From Promethearchaeota archaeon (lineage in GTDB: Archaea; Asgardarchaeota; Thorarchaeia; Thorarchaeales; Thorarchaeaceae), in contig JBHLPF010000030.1 of NCBI GenBank assembly GCA_048939765.1, positions 3,402 through 47,445 of the forward strand: a stretch of DNA of 44,044 bases. The letters are read 5' to 3'. Shown here piece after piece: positions 16,327 to 25,267 of the stretch (within the stretch, counting starts at the first letter, position 1; each line of letters opens with the position of its first letter). Made by a program: the position numbers and the translations under genes. The notes below the pieces were generated by a model. The model was not told where the DNA came from, ran no database searches, and saw nothing but the letters and a program-made list of their open reading frames with translations.

Positions 16327-17733
16327 ATGTCCGGTCTCAAGACAATGCTTAATCCGAATGTCACTGCTGTGGTTGGAGTTTCAACATCCAACCCATTTTC
16401 CCCAGGAAATGTTATCTTCAGGAAACTCGCCTTTGAGAACGGCCTGCCTACATATCCGATAAATCCCAAAGGAGGACTTGTCGAGGGGAAGCAGGTCTAC
16501 AAGAGTATTAGTGAAGCACCCGATGACATCGAACTTGTCGTGATTTCAGTACCGGCAAAATACGTACCTGGTGTTCTACAACAATGTGCTGATAAGCGGA
16601 TAAAGTCTGTAATAGTGGTCTCAGGAGGATTCAGCGAAGTTGGAGAGTCAGGAGCGTCGCTTCAAGATGAAATTGTGGAGATTGCGAACAACAATGGAAT
16701 TTCAATGGTTGGTCCTAACTGCATTGGCGTCTTTGTGCCGGATCAGATAGATACATTCTTTCTGCCATCTGAACGTGTTGCGCGTCCCAGAAGGGGAAAT
16801 GTGGCAATCATCAGTCAGAGCGGCGGATGGTTAGTGGAGCGACTGGAGGAGTTTGCCGCGAGAGATGTTGGTATCGCAGCAGCCATCTCTATCGGCAATC
16901 AAGCCCAGACAAATGTCACTGACTTCGTGAGATATTTCGGGGATGATAAGAAAGTTGATGTCATTTTAGCTTATGTCGAAGGGTTTGGCAAAGATGAAGG
17001 AAGAGTATTCGTAGAAACCTGTTCTGAGATTGCTCCCAAGAAGCCGGTAATTGTGCTGAAAGGAGGCGAGTCAGAGGCAGGTCATAGAGCAACGCAGAGT
17101 CATACCTCGTCACTCGCTGGAGATATGGCAATTACAGAAGCGGCATTTGAGCAATTTGGAGTGATTCATGCGATTGATGAAGACGAGGTAATGGCGTATT
17201 CAAAGGTGTTCTCAAGCAGACCAAAACTGATGATAGGATTGGGTGTGGGAACAATGACTGTGAGCGGTGGTCACGGAGTGATAGCAAGTGATGAGGCTGC
17301 TCATTACGGTCTGGTTTTTCCAGCATTCACGAAAGAACAACAGGAAAGTATGAGAAGCGTCATGACACCGGCATACCAGGGGATTGCATCATTTAGAAAT
17401 CCAATTGATCTCACCGGAAGTGCCTCGGATGTCGATTACGAGCGGGTTCTAGATGTAATGCTTGCTTTCGAATCCATTGATGCAGCGTTGCTGCTGCTCC
17501 TCCCCTATGCTCCAGGAATATCTCTTCAGATAGGTGCTAGAGTCGCGAACGTTGCTAAGAAACATGCGAAGACTGTGGTTTCATATGTGCCAAACCTGGA
17601 TAAGTATGAAGTCATTATCCGGGGTTTCGAGCTGAATGGAGTTCCTGTAGCGGATACAATTGAAGAGGCAGTACAGATGCTAAATGGAATTCGGAAACGC
17701 TCAAAATATCTAAAGAGAATTGGGGCGCTCTAA
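16327..17733 (+). CDS. acdA: Acetate/acyl-CoA ligase (ADP-forming), alpha subunit
   Basis: CoA-binding domain (YPINPK, VVSGGFSEVG, GPNCIG), ISQSGG, SIGNQ, phospho-His motif SHTSSLAG and NPIDLTG. Confidence 0.88.
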   Translation: MSGLKTMLNPNVTAVVGVSTSNPFSPGNVIFRKLAFENGLPTYPINPKGGLVEGKQVYKSISEAPDDIELVVISVPAKYVPGVLQQCADKRIKSVIVVSGGFSEVGESGASLQDEIVEIANNNGISMVGPNCIGVFVPDQIDTFFLPSERVARPRRGNVAIISQSGGWLVERLEEFAARDVGIAAAISIGNQAQTNVTDFVRYFGDDKKVDVILAYVEGFGKDEGRVFVETCSEIAPKKPVIVLKGGESEAGHRATQSHTSSLAGDMAITEAAFEQFGVIHAIDEDEVMAYSKVFSSRPKLMIGLGVGTMTVSGGHGVIASDEAAHYGLVFPAFTKEQQESMRSVMTPAYQGIASFRNPIDLTGSASDVDYERVLDVMLAFESIDAALLLLLPYAPGISLQIGARVANVAKKHAKTVVSYVPNLDKYEVIIRGFELNGVPVADTIEEAVQMLNGIRKRSKYLKRIGAL

Positions 17734-18854
17734 CCCGCAATCTTCCTGTAGTCTATATCTAAGGATTTGAGGGCTTCGACTAGCTGACCACTTAGAATCA
17801 GAGGTCTCTCAGCTAGATCATCAACCCCGCTACAACCAGTCAGGTACATCGCAACCTTCAGACTCTCCAGAATTCGTTCTATCTCAACAACCACATCAAG
17901 GACAGAGCCCATTGCCGCAGGTCTCAGCAAAGGATGGGCAACGCCAGCTGCGATGGCACCCAGAGATAGGGACTTCGCGACATCGAGGCCATTTCGAATC
18001 CCGCCAGTTGCGATTACATCAAGCTCGGTTGCATCACGAACCATAATGACGCTAAGTGCAGTAGGTATGCCCCAGTCCCAAAAATCAAGTCCAAGCTGTG
18101 CTTTCAAGTCATCATCTTCCTTGACCGCCCTGAAGTATTCGACCGCAGCCCAGCTAGTCCCACCTGCACCTCCGACATCAATAGCATCCACCCCGACAGA
18201 TTCTAGTGCTTGAGCCACCTCACCAGAGATCCCAGCTCCAGTCTCCTTCACAAGCACGGGAACGTCAACTGAATCCACTATGGAGGCAATGTTCTCCAAT
18301 ACGCCTTCTGAATTTGAATCACCCTCGGGCTGAATTGCTTCTTGCAGTGGATTAAGATGGATAGCGAGAATGTCCGCATCAATCATCTCTATGGCGTCAG
18401 GAGCCACATCAACATGAGTTGCCCCAATGTTAGCAATCACTGGGACGGATGGGGCTGTCTCTCTCACGACTCGGAATGTATCTGCGAGTGAAGGATCCTC
18501 TACTGCAGCCCTTTGACTGCCAACTCCAATCGGTATTCTGAGCTCTTCTGCGGCGCCTGCTAGCTTCTTGTTGATGTCATATGTCTTAGGGTGGCCGCCA
18601 GTCATAGCTGCAATGACAAGGGGAGCGTGAGCCCTCAGTCCCAAGAAGTTCGTCGTGAGGTCAATCTTGTCCTTGTCTATCTCAGGCAATGCATTGTGAA
18701 CGAGGTTGATATGCTCAAACATTGTAGACTGTCGGCATTGCACGTCCTCTTCAAGACATATCTCGATATGCTCAATTTTCCGTCTTCGTGTCGTAGAAGA
18801 TTCCGAAATATCATCCTCTAATGTGCTGTCTGCAAGTGGCTCTCCTTTCGCCAT
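17730..18854 (-). CDS. fni: Type 2 isopentenyl-diphosphate delta-isomerase (FMN-dependent)
   Basis: RKIEHI, AMTGG, GVGSQRA, ANIG, HLNPLQEAIQPEGD, KETGAG, GAGGTSWAAVE, WGIPT and TGGIRNG. Confidence 0.97.
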   Translation of the reverse strand: MAKGEPLADSTLEDDISESSTTRRRKIEHIEICLEEDVQCRQSTMFEHINLVHNALPEIDKDKIDLTTNFLGLRAHAPLVIAAMTGGHPKTYDINKKLAGAAEELRIPIGVGSQRAAVEDPSLADTFRVVRETAPSVPVIANIGATHVDVAPDAIEMIDADILAIHLNPLQEAIQPEGDSNSEGVLENIASIVDSVDVPVLVKETGAGISGEVAQALESVGVDAIDVGGAGGTSWAAVEYFRAVKEDDDLKAQLGLDFWDWGIPTALSVIMVRDATELDVIATGGIRNGLDVAKSLSLGAIAAGVAHPLLRPAAMGSVLDVVVEIERILESLKVAMYLTGCSGVDDLAERPLILSGQLVEALKSLDIDYRKIAG

Positions 18855-19088
18855 GGGGTCATCTCCCTGTGAACGAACTGTGTACGAGGATGTTGATAGC
18901 CATTTTGGTTGAGACTACTTTCGTTTACCTACTGCTTCTATACGGATGTTTCATTCAAAGTCACAAAGGTAGAAGTGTGGTATAGAACATGGAAGACGAG
19001 TCGGAGTTCAGAGTAGAATCCCCAGCCCAGGAGGAGAAGGAAAAGATTGAACTTCATAGGAACTCTACTTCGCGAGTTCCTCTAGTAC

Positions 19089-19547
19089 CTAGAAATCACT
19101 CTCAGCAAGATAGCTCCAACCAGATGCAACCATCTTTCGCTTATCCTTTTGCCACGAGTCGTATCCTTCATCACGAATCTTATGCAATGATGGTAATGCC
19201 CATGGTCGAGCCTTTAGTTCCGAACAAGATTCTATCCGAATGCAGTCGAGGCATGTCCGATATCCTCTATCAATTGAACACGATCTTACTTTGCAGTCTG
19301 GGATTCCTCCCCCCTTACGACAGCCTCTGCAGCCGTCAAAATCATCTTTTACCCCATCAAGCACCTTCTCATACCTTTCTAGATGCATTCGGACTGATTC
19401 GTCTTCGCCGATTTCTGCTGCACGCCTTTTAGATGGAGCTAGCACACTCTGAAGGTCGTCAACGCCATGCACAAATTTGCTTTGGTGTATGTCACAGCCT
19501 GGACAATAGAGACCACAATATGAGGTCAAATCATCAGAGCTAGGCAT
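19089..19547 (-). CDS. Cys-rich DUF3795-like protein (putative Fe-S/Zn binding)
   Basis: YCGLYCPGC ... CRGCR ... C.VRSC...RGYRTCLDC....C pattern. ATG 19547 is preceded by AGGTGA SD (ORF track starts at GTG 19556). Confidence 0.82.
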   Translation of the reverse strand: MPSSDDLTSYCGLYCPGCDIHQSKFVHGVDDLQSVLAPSKRRAAEIGEDESVRMHLERYEKVLDGVKDDFDGCRGCRKGGGIPDCKVRSCSIDRGYRTCLDCIRIESCSELKARPWALPSLHKIRDEGYDSWQKDKRKMVASGWSYLAESDF

Positions 19548-19696
19548 ACGACTCACCTAAGCAAGGTATAGACATTAGTTCAAGATAAACCTTCTAACTC
19601 AGGTGTTCATGCAATTGATTCCTTAGCACAGCATTATTAACAGCTTCAGCCAACACAACTTAGACGCTTCAGGCATGTATTCGGAGGCTTGTTGTC

Positions 19697-20404
19697 ATGA
19701 CGATAGCTATCGTCAAGTTTCCCGGGACAAATAGCGAGAAAGATGTACTTCGAGCGCTTTCATTAATCCCAGGAACAAGACCGTTTGTGGCCTTGAGCCA
19801 AATGGGGTCAAAAATCCTACAAGAAGCAGATGCCCTGGTCATTCCAAGCGGAGCCTCGATTGAAGAGTATGTCAATGTAGGGGCAGAGAAGTGGATAGAC
19901 AGTCTAAAGGATGCGATTCAGGAAATCGCTGAATCAGGCAAGCCAATCCTAGGAATTGGAAATGGCGTACAAATATTGACAAGATTCGGTTTGCTGCCAG
20001 GTCAGCTTCGGATGAATAAGAACGGGAGATTCATTTGCAAGTGGGTCTATCTCAGGGTATGTGAGGACCCCACGATTTTCACCGAGGGACTTGAAGGACT
20101 TGTGATTCGAATTCCAATAGCACACTCCCATGGGAGATTTCACTTCAAGAAGAAGGAATTCGAGAGAATAAATCAATATAGAGGGGTCGTGTTCAGATAC
20201 TGCAATCAGGAAGGAGAGAGCATCCCTGAAGCTAATCCAAATGGATCGATAGACAATATTGCAGGAGTGAAGAACGAAGCAGGAAATATATTGGGAATTA
20301 TACCGCAGCCGGAAAGAGCAACCAGAGCTGAACTAACATCTAGTGATGGTCTGATTCTTCTAGAGAGCTTTGTGCGGTCTATAAAGTCGAGGAGTCTTTC
20401 ATGA
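19697..20404 (+). CDS. purQ: PurQ-like glutamine amidotransferase subunit with degenerate catalytic triad
   Basis: IVKFPGTNSE.D, N..GRFICKWV.L, IPIAH..GRF and NPNGSIDNIAG match PurQ. The nucleophile motif reads LGIGNG (canonical LGICNG) and the His motif reads IPQPER (canonical MPHPER). Confidence 0.88.
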   Translation: MTIAIVKFPGTNSEKDVLRALSLIPGTRPFVALSQMGSKILQEADALVIPSGASIEEYVNVGAEKWIDSLKDAIQEIAESGKPILGIGNGVQILTRFGLLPGQLRMNKNGRFICKWVYLRVCEDPTIFTEGLEGLVIRIPIAHSHGRFHFKKKEFERINQYRGVVFRYCNQEGESIPEANPNGSIDNIAGVKNEAGNILGIIPQPERATRAELTSSDGLILLESFVRSIKSRSLS

Positions 20405-22548
20405 TATCTGAGCAGGAGAGAGAGCAGCTAGCGCTAGCTTTGGGACGAGAGCCAACAGAAACCGAGCTAGGAGTGGTTTCAATTCTATGGTCAGAACGGA
20501 GGAGTTACAAAAGCAGCAAGCGGTGGTTCAGCGAGTTCAAGACTGAAGGAGATAATATAGTACTGGGGCTTGGGAAAGGAGCGGGAATTGTCAATCTTGG
20601 AGATGATGTATTTCTTGGAGTTGCCATGGAATCGAACAATCATCCTACACAAGCAAATCCGTACATTGGATCTGCTTTAGGAATTGCTGGTGTCATCAGT
20701 GATGTGATTGCACATGGATGCAAACCAATTGCATTGCTGAATAGTCTGAGATTTGGAGACCCTGGCATTGAAGAAAATGCCGCTGCACTTAGAGAGGCAG
20801 TGAGAGGGATTTCGCATTTCACTAATAACGTAGGGATTCCTATGATTGGAGGGGACACTGAGTTTGACCAATCATTTGAGAAAAGCAGTGTGCTGAATGT
20901 TGTCTGTGTCGGAATAACGAGTCCAGACAGTATGGTTATGAGCAGAGCTTCAACTCCTGGACATCACCTGGTGCTCTTCGGTGCAAATACTAGAAGAGAC
21001 CGCCTAATTGACTACACTGAATCATCAAGAGAAGCAGCGGTAGCTGTGCCCGGAAACCCTCTGGCGGAACGGATAGTCATTGATGCACTGGATCAACTAG
21101 TCGATTCGCATCTTCTGGGCGGTCTGGAAGATGTTGGCGGAGGCGGATTGGCCCTTGCGGGAGCGAAACTTGCCGCAAGAGGGAGGACCGGCGTTGAGCT
21201 TCATGCTGACTTGGTCCCGATCGATGAGGAAGATATGAGCACGCTCGAAATCATCACTTCCGATTCGCAAAATCGAATGCTTGCTGTGGTTGCTCCTGAG
21301 CATTTGGAGAGAGTCCTTTCAATACTTGGCTCCTATGATACTCCATATGCAGTAATCGGCAAGGTGACAGACGAAGGACTCTACAATGTTTATCATGACG
21401 GGGAATTGAAAGCGAGCATTCCTGCAGTTCTATTGACTAGCGGCTTTCTCGAACCTGATCGGTTTGAGGAGTATCTTCCCGAGAGAACTGCATCAATTGA
21501 CTGGTTAGTGCAGCCAGAGGATCATGCACAGATGCTGCTATCAGTGCTTTCCTCACCAAACATTGCCGATAGGTCTTGGATCTATAGTCAGTTCGACCAG
21601 CACATTCAGGCAAACACTCTTGTTGACATAGGAGATAACTCAGGTGTTATCGATCTTCCTAAGGGAAAGAGAATTGCGCTAACCACATCATCAAACTCCT
21701 TCTGGAGCCATCTTCACCCTCAGATTGGAGCGGCGAATTCTGCCACACTTGCTCTAAGGAATCTGGTTGCATCTGGGGCAAAGCCCATCTTCATAGCGGA
21801 TTGCATAAACTTTGGAAATCCTGAACGTCCTGAGTCGTATGCGGAGTTTGTAGAGGCGGTGAAGGGCATAGGTAGTTTCTCACACGACTTCGATATTCCT
21901 GTGATAACTGGCGGAGTCTCACCCTACAATGAAAGAAAGATAGACGGTAGGCCCAAGAGGATTCATATTACTCCCCAGATTATGATGGCTGGAGTCCTAT
22001 TGGAAGGACATCTTCCTACTAGACGAAGGCTATGTACGCCGTGGGCTAACATCTTCCTTGTTGGCGAAACTCATCGAGAATTGAATGGCTCTGAGTTCCA
22101 ACGAATCCTACTAGGGAAGATTCAAGGACTCCCGCCTGGATATCAGCCTGCTGCTGAGAGAGCGGCAATGCGCGCAGTACTTGCCTCATTTGCCAAAGGG
22201 CTCGTCAGGTCATGTAATGATATTGGACGAGGCGGCTTGGCCATTGGATTGATGAAGATGGCTCTGCGAGGAGATTTGGGATTTAGACTCGACCTCACGG
22301 ATGTTCCCGGATCTGCAAAAGGACTGACCGAGATTCTATATTCGGAAACATCAGCCAGATATCTTGTAGAGGTGACAGAAACAAATCAGGATGAATTCCT
22401 GCGCACTGTTGAGGGATACGGAGTTGCAGCCACTGAGCTAGGGTTGACTTTGAACGAACCGATAGCTAATTTTGGCGCTTTCAGTATTGATCTGAAAGAA
22501 GCCAGAGAAGCATACCTGAATGGAATTGCAGGAATACTAGATACATGA
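20401..22548 (+). CDS. purL: Small PurL-like FGAM synthetase subunit with degenerate active site
   Basis: LGREPT.TEL, SYKSS, LNSLRFG, WIYSQFD, DCINFGNPE and LYSET match PurL; ATGA overlap with purQ. WSEHC reads WSERR and ESHNHP reads ESNNHP. Confidence 0.9.
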   Translation: MISEQEREQLALALGREPTETELGVVSILWSERRSYKSSKRWFSEFKTEGDNIVLGLGKGAGIVNLGDDVFLGVAMESNNHPTQANPYIGSALGIAGVISDVIAHGCKPIALLNSLRFGDPGIEENAAALREAVRGISHFTNNVGIPMIGGDTEFDQSFEKSSVLNVVCVGITSPDSMVMSRASTPGHHLVLFGANTRRDRLIDYTESSREAAVAVPGNPLAERIVIDALDQLVDSHLLGGLEDVGGGGLALAGAKLAARGRTGVELHADLVPIDEEDMSTLEIITSDSQNRMLAVVAPEHLERVLSILGSYDTPYAVIGKVTDEGLYNVYHDGELKASIPAVLLTSGFLEPDRFEEYLPERTASIDWLVQPEDHAQMLLSVLSSPNIADRSWIYSQFDQHIQANTLVDIGDNSGVIDLPKGKRIALTTSSNSFWSHLHPQIGAANSATLALRNLVASGAKPIFIADCINFGNPERPESYAEFVEAVKGIGSFSHDFDIPVITGGVSPYNERKIDGRPKRIHITPQIMMAGVLLEGHLPTRRRLCTPWANIFLVGETHRELNGSEFQRILLGKIQGLPPGYQPAAERAAMRAVLASFAKGLVRSCNDIGRGGLAIGLMKMALRGDLGFRLDLTDVPGSAKGLTEILYSETSARYLVEVTETNQDEFLRTVEGYGVAATELGLTLNEPIANFGAFSIDLKEAREAYLNGIAGILDT

Positions 22549-22627
22549 ATCACAAGATTGGATGCCTGAGATATTATATCGCTTAGATAATAAGGCCGCT
22601 AAGGGCTGTTCTGGTCGTGCATCACCT

Positions 22628-23776
22628 ATGAGCGGCAAGTTAGTTTATCCATACACAGATGCGCTTCTGCAATACGAATTCAGGGATGACCATCCCCTAA
22701 AGCCTGACCGACTATCCTTGACACACGAATTGTCCAAAGAGCTCGGTCTTCTCAATCATGTCGACCAAATCGAACCTTCAATGCCTACAAGAGAAGATCT
22801 TGAAATATTCCATAGCCCTCAATATATCGACGCTGTGATTGAAAGCGGCGAAACGTTGACGCCGAAACCAAGCTATGGACTTGGGACAATGGACAATCCT
22901 GTCTTTCCTAATCTGTACGACGCTGCGGCCCGCTATGTTGGAGCCACTCTGGATGCAATGAAGGCAATGATGAATGGGGCGCCGAAGGCGTTCGTCATCT
23001 CCGGAGGATTACATCATGCACATGAAAGCATGGCGTCAGGATTCTGCGTCTTCAACGATATTGTGATTGCGATTAAGCATTTTCAGAAGAAGAAACCATC
23101 AAAGGTTCTATACTTGGATGTTGACGCTCATCATGGCGATGGAGTACAGAATGCCTTCTTTGAGTCAAAGGACGTATTGACGATCTCAATTCACCAGCAT
23201 GGACAGACTCTGTTTCCAGGCACAGGTTTCACTCATGAAAACGGGAGAGGGGAAGGTGTAGGCTATTCAGTCAACATCCCTGTGTTGCCTGGTGCAGGAA
23301 GTGAAGAACTCATCCAAACGTTCGATGAGGTAGTTGTTCCTCTCTTTGACGCATTTCAGCCGGATCTGCTAGTCACACAACTGGGAGTTGATGGACATTT
23401 CTTGGACCCGCTAGCGCAGCTCAGCTATTCCACCAAAGGCTACGAGCACGTCCTCAAGAATTTGAAGAAGATGGCCGAGAAGACTTGTGGCGACGGATGG
23501 CTCGCTGTCGGAGGGGGTGGATATCATCCTGTCAATGTCGCGCGCCTTTGGACGCTATTCCTTTCGGTTATTCTAGACAAAAAGATACCTTCTGAGATGC
23601 CTGACTCATTCATTCAGCTCTGCCGGGAAAAGGGATATTCAAATTTCCCAGAGAAAATGAGAGATGAAGACAATGTGGTCCAAATCTATCTTCCCATAGA
23701 GCAAATCAGGCTTGATCTCGATAGAGTTCTTCGACAGGTCAGGGAAAAAGTGTTCCCCTGGCATGGACTTTCGTGA
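22628..23776 (+). CDS. Zn-dependent histone deacetylase family protein (AcuC-like)
   Basis: HPLKPDR, GGLHHA, SGFCVFND, DVDAHHGDG, FPGTG, QLGVD and GGGGY all intact. Likely start ATG 22628 (ORF track 22562). Confidence 0.93.
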   Translation: MSGKLVYPYTDALLQYEFRDDHPLKPDRLSLTHELSKELGLLNHVDQIEPSMPTREDLEIFHSPQYIDAVIESGETLTPKPSYGLGTMDNPVFPNLYDAAARYVGATLDAMKAMMNGAPKAFVISGGLHHAHESMASGFCVFNDIVIAIKHFQKKKPSKVLYLDVDAHHGDGVQNAFFESKDVLTISIHQHGQTLFPGTGFTHENGRGEGVGYSVNIPVLPGAGSEELIQTFDEVVVPLFDAFQPDLLVTQLGVDGHFLDPLAQLSYSTKGYEHVLKNLKKMAEKTCGDGWLAVGGGGYHPVNVARLWTLFLSVILDKKIPSEMPDSFIQLCREKGYSNFPEKMRDEDNVVQIYLPIEQIRLDLDRVLRQVREKVFPWHGLS

Positions 23777-23777
23777 G

Positions 23778-24398
23778 TCATTCTTCCCCGTGGAAACTAA
23801 TATCTATCCACTCTCGCACCATTCTGGTCACCATTTCAGATGCCGCCGCGATGATTACAGCATCAGCATCCTCAGAAAGCAATGAAGACGGGTCCACGCC
23901 TACACGAGCCATACGAAGAAGAGATGGATAGCAAAGAAAGCCCAGAGCCTCCACTATCTCCATCGCGTCGGCGCCTGCGACTTGCAGACGGCCTCGTAGT
24001 AGCTCATGAGGCGAAATTCGTGCGTCGCTGTCAAGCAGGTCCATAAGGGTTTCAAAGTCTGATGAGATTACAACATCTGGCTCAATGCATTCGTCATAGA
24101 CCTTTGTCAATCCGCCATCGAATACAATGGAGTACTCATCGTCAGTGTCAGAGGTCTTGAAACAGAAGGAAATGTTGGAGAATGAACCTTCCTTAGAATG
24201 CATGAGCTCTTCAAATTCGTCTTCAGACATATCGTGAAGCTGTCTTGCCTTCTCCACACTAACACTCAGAGCTGATCTGCAGCCATCAACTATAGGACCA
24301 AGATACTCCATCAGCATAAATCGATCTACATTGATGTCAGATGATAGCTGATTGAGGCTTCGTCCGATGCTTCGGGGTTTCTCATCATTCTCGGTCAA
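23778..24398 (-). CDS. Hypothetical protein with a probable SCP2 (sterol-carrier-like) lipid-binding domain
   Basis: YSIVFDGG..KV......PDVVISSDFETLMDLL.......ELLRGRLQVAG resembles SCP2. Start placed at in-frame TTG 24398, downstream of a TTTTATTA box; the longer ORF would overlap the divergent gene. Confidence 0.6.
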   Translation of the reverse strand: MTENDEKPRSIGRSLNQLSSDINVDRFMLMEYLGPIVDGCRSALSVSVEKARQLHDMSEDEFEELMHSKEGSFSNISFCFKTSDTDDEYSIVFDGGLTKVYDECIEPDVVISSDFETLMDLLDSDARISPHELLRGRLQVAGADAMEIVEALGFLCYPSLLRMARVGVDPSSLLSEDADAVIIAAASEMVTRMVREWIDISFHGEE

Positions 24399-24511
24399 CT
24401 GGCTCGAGAAAAAGGTAGGCTTCTTCCTTTTAGAGATGATGATAAGCTCCCAACAAATAATAAAACTCAATCCTAGTAGTAAGAGGATGCACCAGAGAAG
24501 GAATGCACCCC

Positions 24512-25267
24512 ATGACGACCGATATTCACACTCATCTCGGAACCGACAGGAATTCACTTCACGAGGTCGATAAGCACAATCTCGCTGAGCAAGTGGACCT
24601 TCTTATCAGTCGCATGGACCATTTTGGCGTTGAAAAAGCTGTGCTCACTCCGCTAAATCCATTCAAAGATAACGAGCTAAATATGGCAGCAGCAGCTATT
24701 TACCCTGATCGCCTGTTTAGTGCGTGTACTCTGCTTCCTCGACCGATTGATTCGGCTATCGAGAGGTTAAAGCACTACATCAAAGAGGGATGCGTGGCTG
24801 TTGTTCTTGATGACAGGAATTATGGACCAGAGGACCCTGCTGCGCTGATGTTGATTCGAGAAGCTGTGGATCGCAATGTGCCGGTCTATATTCATAATGA
24901 TGTCTTGACTGCTGGGGGGCTTGCATTCATAGATAAGGCGTCAACCATGTTTCCAAAAGGGAAATTTGTGATTCTTCATATGGGGGGTCTCTTCGGCTTC
25001 CCTCAACTCATTCCATTGATGTCACGTCAGAACATCTGGTTGGATATATCCATCACACTAGTGAGACTCGTTGAGTCACATCTCAGAGTATTCCTTGATG
25101 CACTTGCCCAGGACATTGGTGTACGAAAGCTTGTGTTCGGTTCAGAGCATCATAGCGAATACTTGGACTTGAGGGCTGCTTTGAATCTGCTAGATCTGAA
25201 TGTTGAAACAAGCAGGATAATTCGTGCTGAGAATGCATGGGTCCTTCTAGGACTTGATTTCACGTAG
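24512..25267 (+). CDS. Amidohydrolase family (Amidohydro_2-type) TIM-barrel protein
   Basis: DIHTH, MDHFGVEKAVL, PVYIH, ILHMGG, NIWLDIS and KLVFGSE. Start 24512 or 24503. Confidence 0.85.
   Translation: MTTDIHTHLGTDRNSLHEVDKHNLAEQVDLLISRMDHFGVEKAVLTPLNPFKDNELNMAAAAIYPDRLFSACTLLPRPIDSAIERLKHYIKEGCVAVVLDDRNYGPEDPAALMLIREAVDRNVPVYIHNDVLTAGGLAFIDKASTMFPKGKFVILHMGGLFGFPQLIPLMSRQNIWLDISITLVRLVESHLRVFLDALAQDIGVRKLVFGSEHHSEYLDLRAALNLLDLNVETSRIIRAENAWVLLGLDFT

Follow-up and report, generated by a model that had tools for sequence, protein, structure and literature searches.

The 44,044-nucleotide window analyzed here (contig JBHLPF010000030.1 of assembly GCA_048939765.1, positions 3,402 to 47,445 of the forward strand) belongs to a Thorarchaeaceae metagenome-assembled genome that is 88.5% complete (G000; its GTDB genus, g1, is referred to below as the genus). 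The window carries an adjacent gene pair, here termed purQ* and purL*, encoding homologs of the PurQ and PurL subunits of formylglycinamidine ribonucleotide (FGAM) synthase (Table 1). A sequence-only reading of the window had described two full-length open reading frames (ORFs) that overlap at ATGA and have altered catalytic motifs, and this description holds: both ORFs are open throughout (235 and 715 codons), the overlap lies at 20401–20404, and alignment to solved chains places Gly88 and Gln204 (PurQ*) and Arg33 and Asn79 (PurL*) at catalytic positions. A GGAGG-like motif precedes each start. Both products match their subunit families end to end (PurQ*: TIGR01737, 222.5 bits, cut-off 177.8; PurL*: TIGR01736, 606.2 bits, cut-off 525.75), and both fall below the cut-offs of the stricter NCBIfam equivalogs (PurQ*: NF002957, 200.6 against 212; PurL*: NF002290, 610.6 against 648). 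For the other PurM-superfamily paralogs (HypE, ThiL, SelD, and methanogenesis marker 2), PurL* scores far under every family cut-off (e.g., marker 2, 80.8 against 365; HypE, 54.3 against 251.6). Public records annotate close homologs as Thorarchaeota PurL.

Table 1. Features of the purQ*-purL* locus, in window coordinates.
Feature	Position	Strand	Remarks
purQ*	19697..20404	+	PurQ-type class I amidotransferase subunit; triad dead by alignment, oxyanion loop (residues 50–58) rewritten
PurQ* codon 88, GGA (Gly)	19958..19960	+	Position of the nucleophile Cys, which is Cys in all canonical relatives
PurQ* codon 204, CAG (Gln)	20306..20308	+	Position of the triad His; private to G000
purL*	20401..22548	+	Small-type PurL, full length, altered at catalytic positions
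PurL* codons 33–34, Arg-Arg	20497..20502	+	Replaces His-Cys (T. maritima His32-Cys33)
PurL* codon 79, Asn	20635..20637	+	Replaces the catalytic His (T. maritima His72); ESHNHP to ESNNHP
Catalytic-loop remnant, PurL* residues 195–215	20983..21045	+	Varies within the genus; sole disordered part of the model
FMN-dependent dehydrogenase-like gene	17730..18854	-	Left synteny anchor of the slot that once held the pur supercluster
DUF3795 gene	19089..19556	-	Divergent from purQ*; neighbor specific to the genus
HDAC/AcuC-type deacetylase gene	22562..23776	+	Catalytic motifs intact; orthologue of the last gene of the ancestral supercluster
orf259 (-) and Amidohydro_2 (+)	23778..25267		Right synteny anchors common to the examined auxotrophic lineages of the family

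Residues of PurQ* were assigned by HMMER alignment to Thermotoga maritima PurQ (3D54_D) and by a 28–29-sequence Asgard alignment, and the codons were checked. Of the Cys-His-Glu triad of FGAM synthase, PurQ* retains only Glu206, with Gly88 and Gln204 at the other two positions, and its oxyanion loop reads PSGASIEEY where canonical sequences have PGGFSYGDY. The losses are stepwise: the Cys is missing genus-wide, the oxyanion loop is altered in the subclade that contains G000, and the His is replaced in G000 only. PurQ* lacks the residue needed for glutamine hydrolysis (Cys). In a 2011 survey of archaeal purine synthesis, Cys and Glu were conserved in all archaeal PurQ examined (PMC3261824).

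Residues of PurL* were assigned by HMMER alignment to PurL of T. maritima (2HS0) and Thermus thermophilus (3VIU), together with a 28–29-sequence Asgard alignment, and the codons were likewise checked. In T. maritima PurL, His32 and His72 are reportedly the catalytic residues, as Morar and colleagues are said to have shown in 2006; both positions are changed in PurL*. Further changes include Arg100 to Ser (IIRD to VISD), QIGDP to VPGNP, and SESQERM to SDSQNRM, and His105, Phe159, Lys256, and Phe398 stand where canonical proteins have Gln, Tyr, Glu, and Tyr, respectively. The catalytic loop TGRDGIxGxxFAS is replaced by a segment shorter by about nine residues. Retained are Glu77, Ser78, Asn80, His81, Asp101, and Asp244; all of these except Ser78 are invariant across PurL homologs, and we take them to be ATP/Mg ligands. 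The DX4G(A/C)xP motif is also present (Asp101-x4-Gly106-Cys-Lys-Pro109), in the same GC variant as in the canonical sisters. In total, 35 of 160 sites that are near-invariant in canonical Asgard PurL differ in the genus, 29 of them within residues 1–345. PurL* lacks what FGAR (formylglycinamide ribonucleotide) amidation needs, namely His33, His79, and the catalytic loop. In canonical PurL, FGAR and the iminophosphate intermediate are capped when this loop closes, and the loop also passes the signal on to the glutaminase (PMC7124931, PMC13013826).

Some further PurL homologs from public collections, outside the lineages studied, are also altered at catalytic positions: P0050 has His33→Arg and His79→Arg; P0078, a protein of 1064 residues, has Gln/Tyr at the altered catalytic positions; and in P0224 and P0243 the changes are limited to His33→Asn and Cys34→Ser, the rest being canonical.

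An AlphaFold2 model of PurL* (63-sequence alignment) had a predicted local distance difference test score (pLDDT) of 93.8 and a predicted template modeling (TM) score of 0.93, with pLDDT below 50 only at residues 203–214, in the loop remnant. The best Foldseek match of the model was T. thermophilus PurL (3VIU; TM score 0.92, root-mean-square deviation 2.1 Å), then T. maritima PurL; HypE, ThiL, and SelD were the next-best folds. In this model, the four-subdomain PurL fold is intact. The C-terminal half of PurL holds an auxiliary ADP site, the function of which is not known even in the real enzyme (PMC3815217).

The absence of purS and any other pur gene from the window, as originally read, extends to the rest of the 88.5%-complete G000 assembly, in which none was found. 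A proposed role for the pair as regulator of a true PurSQL complex is excluded, as G000 has no second canonical purQ, purL, or purS. Specifically, purN, purP, purC, purE, and guaA were not found in G000; searches of 16 genus genomes, among them G000 and one single-contig genome, recovered neither PurS (PF02700) nor PurM; PurF and PurD were not found in five (the PurF search gave only a GlmS-like partial match); and purA and purB were not found in four. PurS and PurM are present in five of five sister genera, in which PurS is fused to PurC. An assembly gap behind the missing genes was considered and rejected: the flanks are syntenic and contiguous, and the single-contig genome also lacks PurS and PurM. 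The synteny reflects local deletions. Because purA, purB, and guaA are missing, AMP and GMP must each come from salvage, which is plausible given that G000 encodes an APRT-like phosphoribosyltransferase (G000:C86:64568-64996).

The pair descends directly from the small-type FGAM synthase PurL-PurQ-PurS2 (EC 6.3.5.3; 3D54, 2HS0-2HS4, 3VIU). It resembles this enzyme in subunit length, fold, translational coupling of purQ to purL, the DX4G(A/C)xP motif, and the C-terminal half of PurL; PurL* is 52–55% identical to the canonical PurL of sister genera and is encoded in the same syntenic slot. Unlike FGAM synthase, PurQ* lacks the triad Cys (and, in G000, the His), PurL* lacks His33, His79, Arg100, and the catalytic loop, and the pair has neither a PurS partner nor a surrounding purine pathway to supply FGAR and use FGAM. 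Since the steps before and after FGAM synthesis are absent, loss of FGAM synthesis itself is implied. That the pair is still an FGAM synthase, working with other residues or with free ammonia, is barely credible: the TIGR01736 and TIGR01737 cut-offs are still passed and public records name the protein PurL, but the genus genomes examined have no makers of FGAR (PurF, PurD, PurN) and no user of FGAM (PurM), the catalytic His residues and loop are gone, and there is no PurS. PurQ*-PurL* almost certainly has no FGAM synthase activity.

The origin of the pair can be traced in a single syntenic slot. In the sister genome G019 (L065:4180-17599), the slot holds a single-strand, 11-gene supercluster, purN-purF-purP-purP-purC/purS-purQ-purL-purE/purM-purD-guaA-HDAC, which is found across sister genera (also L064 and L066-L073) and includes two gene fusions, PurC-PurS and PurE-PurM. 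When the eleven G019 products were searched against all of G000 by tblastn, only purQ (50%), purL (53%), and the adjacent HDAC gene (61%) were recovered; these three genes are the sole survivors of the ancestral supercluster. The examined auxotrophic or degenerate lineages have the same anchors, with the FMN-dependent dehydrogenase gene (-) on the left, and the HDAC gene (+), orf259 (-), and Amidohydro_2 (+) on the right; the comparison of the left anchor covers these lineages and not the prototrophs.

Between the anchors, the slot shows graded erosion. In prototrophs it holds the full cluster, ending in guaA-HDAC in nine of the ten checked. In G051 (g5), canonical purC/S-purQ-purL genes follow fragments of purF and purP. 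In G046 (g28), purC/S persists in diverged form, PurQ has Cys→Ser, and PurL carries a cut loop in addition to His33→Ser and His79→Arg. Both the Cys and the His of the PurQ triad are Ser in G056 (g24), whose PurL, although very degenerate, is open over 706 codons and has lost Asp101 and Asp244 as well. The genus itself has the DUF3795 gene (-) followed by purQ*-purL*, and its divergent member G016 has Cys→Ala, His→Tyr, and a split, faster-evolving PurL. In g3, g23, and part of g5, only a small conserved ORF is left. Outside the genus, Thorarchaeia lineages that have lost the pathway thus have either purQ-purL pairs degenerated in other ways or no pair at all. Across all degenerate lineages, G056 included, residues 351–715 of PurL (the C-terminal half) keep 0.69–1.0 of sister-invariant sites per 50-residue window, with the exception of 0.59 at the G016 split, compared with 0.15–0.83 in the N-terminal half.

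The genus, G046, and the metagenomic protein P0003 have derived states in common (Gln105His, Tyr159Phe, Glu256Lys/Arg, Gly262Asn, and Tyr398Phe). The maximum-likelihood PurL tree sets G046 and P0003 apart from the genus, a single clade of all degenerate PurL proteins was not rejected by the approximately unbiased test (p = 0.378), and the HDAC tree is unresolved at depth; for the latter two reasons, we do not claim independent origins for the degenerate lineages. A second metagenomic degenerate PurL, P0005, is of the G056 type, and the class representatives include no close relative of P0003.

Two side observations concern the slot. The G051 remnants (L096:1951-2165) comprise the purF C-terminus and the purP N-terminus, just upstream of purC/S-purQ-purL, and seem to record a recent deletion that is proceeding in several steps; G051 PurL already has an Asp→Tyr change in the TGRDG loop motif. 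Furthermore, a protein of about 180 residues without a Pfam match (36–57% identity between genera) is encoded between the FMN-dependent dehydrogenase gene and the pur cluster or its remains in the loci of every lineage examined outside the genus (L074:893-1435, L075:914-1453, L078:789-1403, L096:1169-1834, L094:1164-1712, L095:2842-3552, L064:3220-3765, and L097:6817-7356). It was not found by tblastn in the window, the rest of G000, or the genus loci L013 and L014; in the genus, the DUF3795 gene, on the other strand, sits where this protein lies elsewhere. Antisense to the DUF3795 gene is an ORF of 147 codons (18989-19432, +) that has no family match and whose similarity to relatives tracks the opposite strand; it is probably not a gene.

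An erosion series that runs down to complete loss within one slot would be consistent with purQ*-purL* being a functionless relic, the last part of the operon not yet deleted and heading for pseudogenization. The split, faster-evolving PurL of G016 and the recent loss of the PurQ His in G000 point in the same direction. Conservation within the genus argues otherwise. The PurQ Cys→Gly change and the PurL Arg-Arg, Asn79, Ser100, and loop-loss states are present in all nine other g1 genomes that have the gene, across PurL identities down to 60%; in six sister genera of the family, PurQ and PurL are fully canonical. A collection of 5.8 billion proteins yielded 20 public clusters of PurL* type, and Arg33, Arg34, Asn79, His105, Phe159, Lys256, and Phe398 occur in all 20; position 100 is Ser in all but one (Asn), and the loop remnant is freely variable.

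Pairwise ratios of nonsynonymous to synonymous substitution rates (dN/dS; Nei–Gojobori, unsaturated pairs only) were 0.076–0.096 for PurL* and 0.096–0.18 for PurQ*, compared with 0.04–0.08 for the downstream HDAC gene and 0.23–0.38 for the upstream DUF3795 gene. Between its two subclades, the genus shows saturation at synonymous sites. Constraint within the genus is seen in each half of PurL* (N-terminal half 0.07–0.10, C-terminal half 0.05–0.12), and dN in the loop remnant is two to four times higher. In the PurL tree, the genus is monophyletic (SH-aLRT 99) on a long stem (0.31 substitutions per site), and its root-to-tip path exceeds that of canonical relatives by a factor of about 2.5. Measured against HDAC as an internal clock, PurL* divergence is 1.2–1.5 times that of HDAC in the genus vs. 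0.74–1.05 times among canonical genera, which taken alone would suit a relic. Together, the dN/dS values, the long stem, and the HDAC-clock ratios indicate that change came in a burst, after which constraint returned in an only mildly relaxed form. Strong purifying selection has acted on both proteins from the divergence of the genus onward, and the substitutions are old and fixed. A relic is very unlikely in view of dN/dS values of about 0.08–0.1 with saturated synonymous sites between subclades, and of more than 700 codons kept open in about 20 independent sequences with invariant derived residues. The sequence-only reading had favored selection for a new role over decay, and had named substitutions private to this assembly and neutral dN/dS as the outcomes that would count against it; the substitutions are genus-wide, with PurQ His204→Gln as the sole exception, and dN/dS is low. 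The pair is very probably kept by selection for some function other than FGAM synthesis.

The gene downstream of purL* encodes a class I/II-type deacetylase, and follows on the same strand by 14–80 nucleotides throughout the genus. In the window, its start is ATG 22562 (14 nucleotides past purL*) or ATG 22628 (about 80 nucleotides); orthologue alignments begin near residue 20–23, so the later start is possible. This spacing, and the terminal position of HDAC in the ancestral operon of nine of ten prototrophic relatives, could mean that the HDAC gene needs the purQ*-purL* frames for its own transcription or translation, and that the frames are kept for this reason. Such a cis effect would preserve reading frames at most, not amino acid sequence (dN/dS 0.08), and the orthologous HDAC persists without an upstream purQL in g3, g5, and g23; we consider this explanation highly improbable. 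An obligate functional coupling of purQ*-purL* to HDAC was likewise rejected: the adjacency is inherited from the ancestral operon and the orthologue survives without purQL, so that adjacency alone is not evidence of a functional link.

We favor a non-catalytic complex over a new enzyme, because the dead PurQ is kept jointly with PurL*, the cap loop is drifting, and the C-terminal half of PurL is universally preserved. PurQ* is retained though useless as a glutaminase, and is still losing catalytic elements step by step. Under this proposal, PurQ* and PurL* would form a non-catalytic heterodimer, that is, a pseudoenzyme. PurL* would still use its PurM-type nucleotide-binding framework, above all in the near-unchanged C-terminal half with its auxiliary nucleotide site, and this half is assumed to hold the PurQ-docking surface as well. 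Where FGAR used to bind, the pocket appears to have been remodeled; it would now be a new, fixed site of higher positive charge (Arg33, Arg34, and Lys256), which may bind another ligand or a partner. Instead of working as an amidotransferase, the complex would thus bind, sense, or scaffold. We regard non-catalytic binding or scaffolding as an evenly balanced proposition.

Several observations weigh against a non-catalytic complex. Within the genus, constraint on the rebuilt N-terminal pocket matches that on the rest of the protein, and the presumed ATP/Mg ligands are all retained; both observations fit a new enzyme equally well. Interaction between PurQ* and PurL* is assumed from the ATGA coupling and their joint retention, and PurS, which canonical complexes need (PMC3261824), is absent. 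In addition, other auxotrophic genera of the family have lost the pair completely, and the function must therefore be dispensable in close relatives.

The main alternative, which these points partly suit, is a neofunctionalized enzyme, in which PurL* would still bind ATP and use PurM-superfamily chemistry, transferring a phosphoryl group to a carbonyl or another oxygen of a new substrate, probably anionic and held by Arg33, Arg34, and Lys256, with PurQ* only as a structural subunit. We consider this rather unlikely. Retention of Glu77, Ser78, Asn80, His81, Asp101, and Asp244 and the invariance of the derived pocket residues across the 20 clusters are consistent with it; an N-terminal-half dN/dS of 0.07–0.10 after a stem of 0.31 is the pattern expected after a functional shift, and the PurM superfamily has diversified in this manner before (HypE, ThiL, and SelD). 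However, the loop shielding the activated intermediate has been cut short and varies, and a PurL-only enzyme would not need the dead PurQ, which is kept and selected. Furthermore, G056 and G016 keep the pair while also losing Asp101 and Asp244, and no candidate substrate pathway adjoins the genes.

A non-catalytic role has a precedent in the vFGARAT/vGAT tegument proteins of herpesviruses (ORF75 and BNRF1; TIGR01739), which are pseudoenzymes derived from host PFAS (PMC7605207); in the literature searched, FGAM-synthase-derived pseudoenzymes were documented only for herpesviruses (PMC7605207). Like PurQ*-PurL*, vGAT is an FGAM-synthase homolog that has no catalytic triad and makes no purines, and it is kept for a protein-binding role (PMC7605207). 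The viral proteins are single-chain, of the large-PurL type, and very divergent, whereas the archaeal pair is cellular, encoded by two genes, and 45–50% diverged from active enzymes. PurL* scores 31.4 bits against the TIGR01739 cut-off of 716.1, and the pair consists of two separate small subunits. Closer parallels are the other Thorarchaeota pairs (G046, G056, G016, and P0003/P0257), which likewise stand in genomes or contexts devoid of purine synthesis and also have intact ORFs, replaced Cys, His, and loop residues, and a preferentially conserved C-terminal half of PurL; these differ in the replacements (Cys→Ser or Ala; His79→Arg, Leu, or Tyr), and some lose Asp101 and Asp244.

A tentative, broader possibility is that PurL-PurQ has a second, non-enzymatic function in Thorarchaeia that is independent of purine synthesis and that the active enzyme may already have. 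Such a function would account for the survival of purQ-purL as the last genes whenever the supercluster is deleted, and for continued selection on the C-terminal half of PurL and on the dead PurQ. If true, PFAS/vGAT moonlighting, described in animals and herpesviruses, would have a counterpart in archaeal cells.

Because close homologs are annotated as PurL, automated metabolic reconstructions will wrongly credit these Thorarchaeota with a step of purine synthesis. The erosion series in one slot provides a clean record of operon dismantling during the evolution of auxotrophy. The pair has been preserved across a whole genus of Asgard archaea without purine synthesis, and a cellular, two-subunit version of this kind would show that FGAM synthase, a large enzyme, has a selectable role beyond catalysis. 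As such, PurQ*-PurL* would represent a natural "separation-of-function" allele by which the non-catalytic role may be found.

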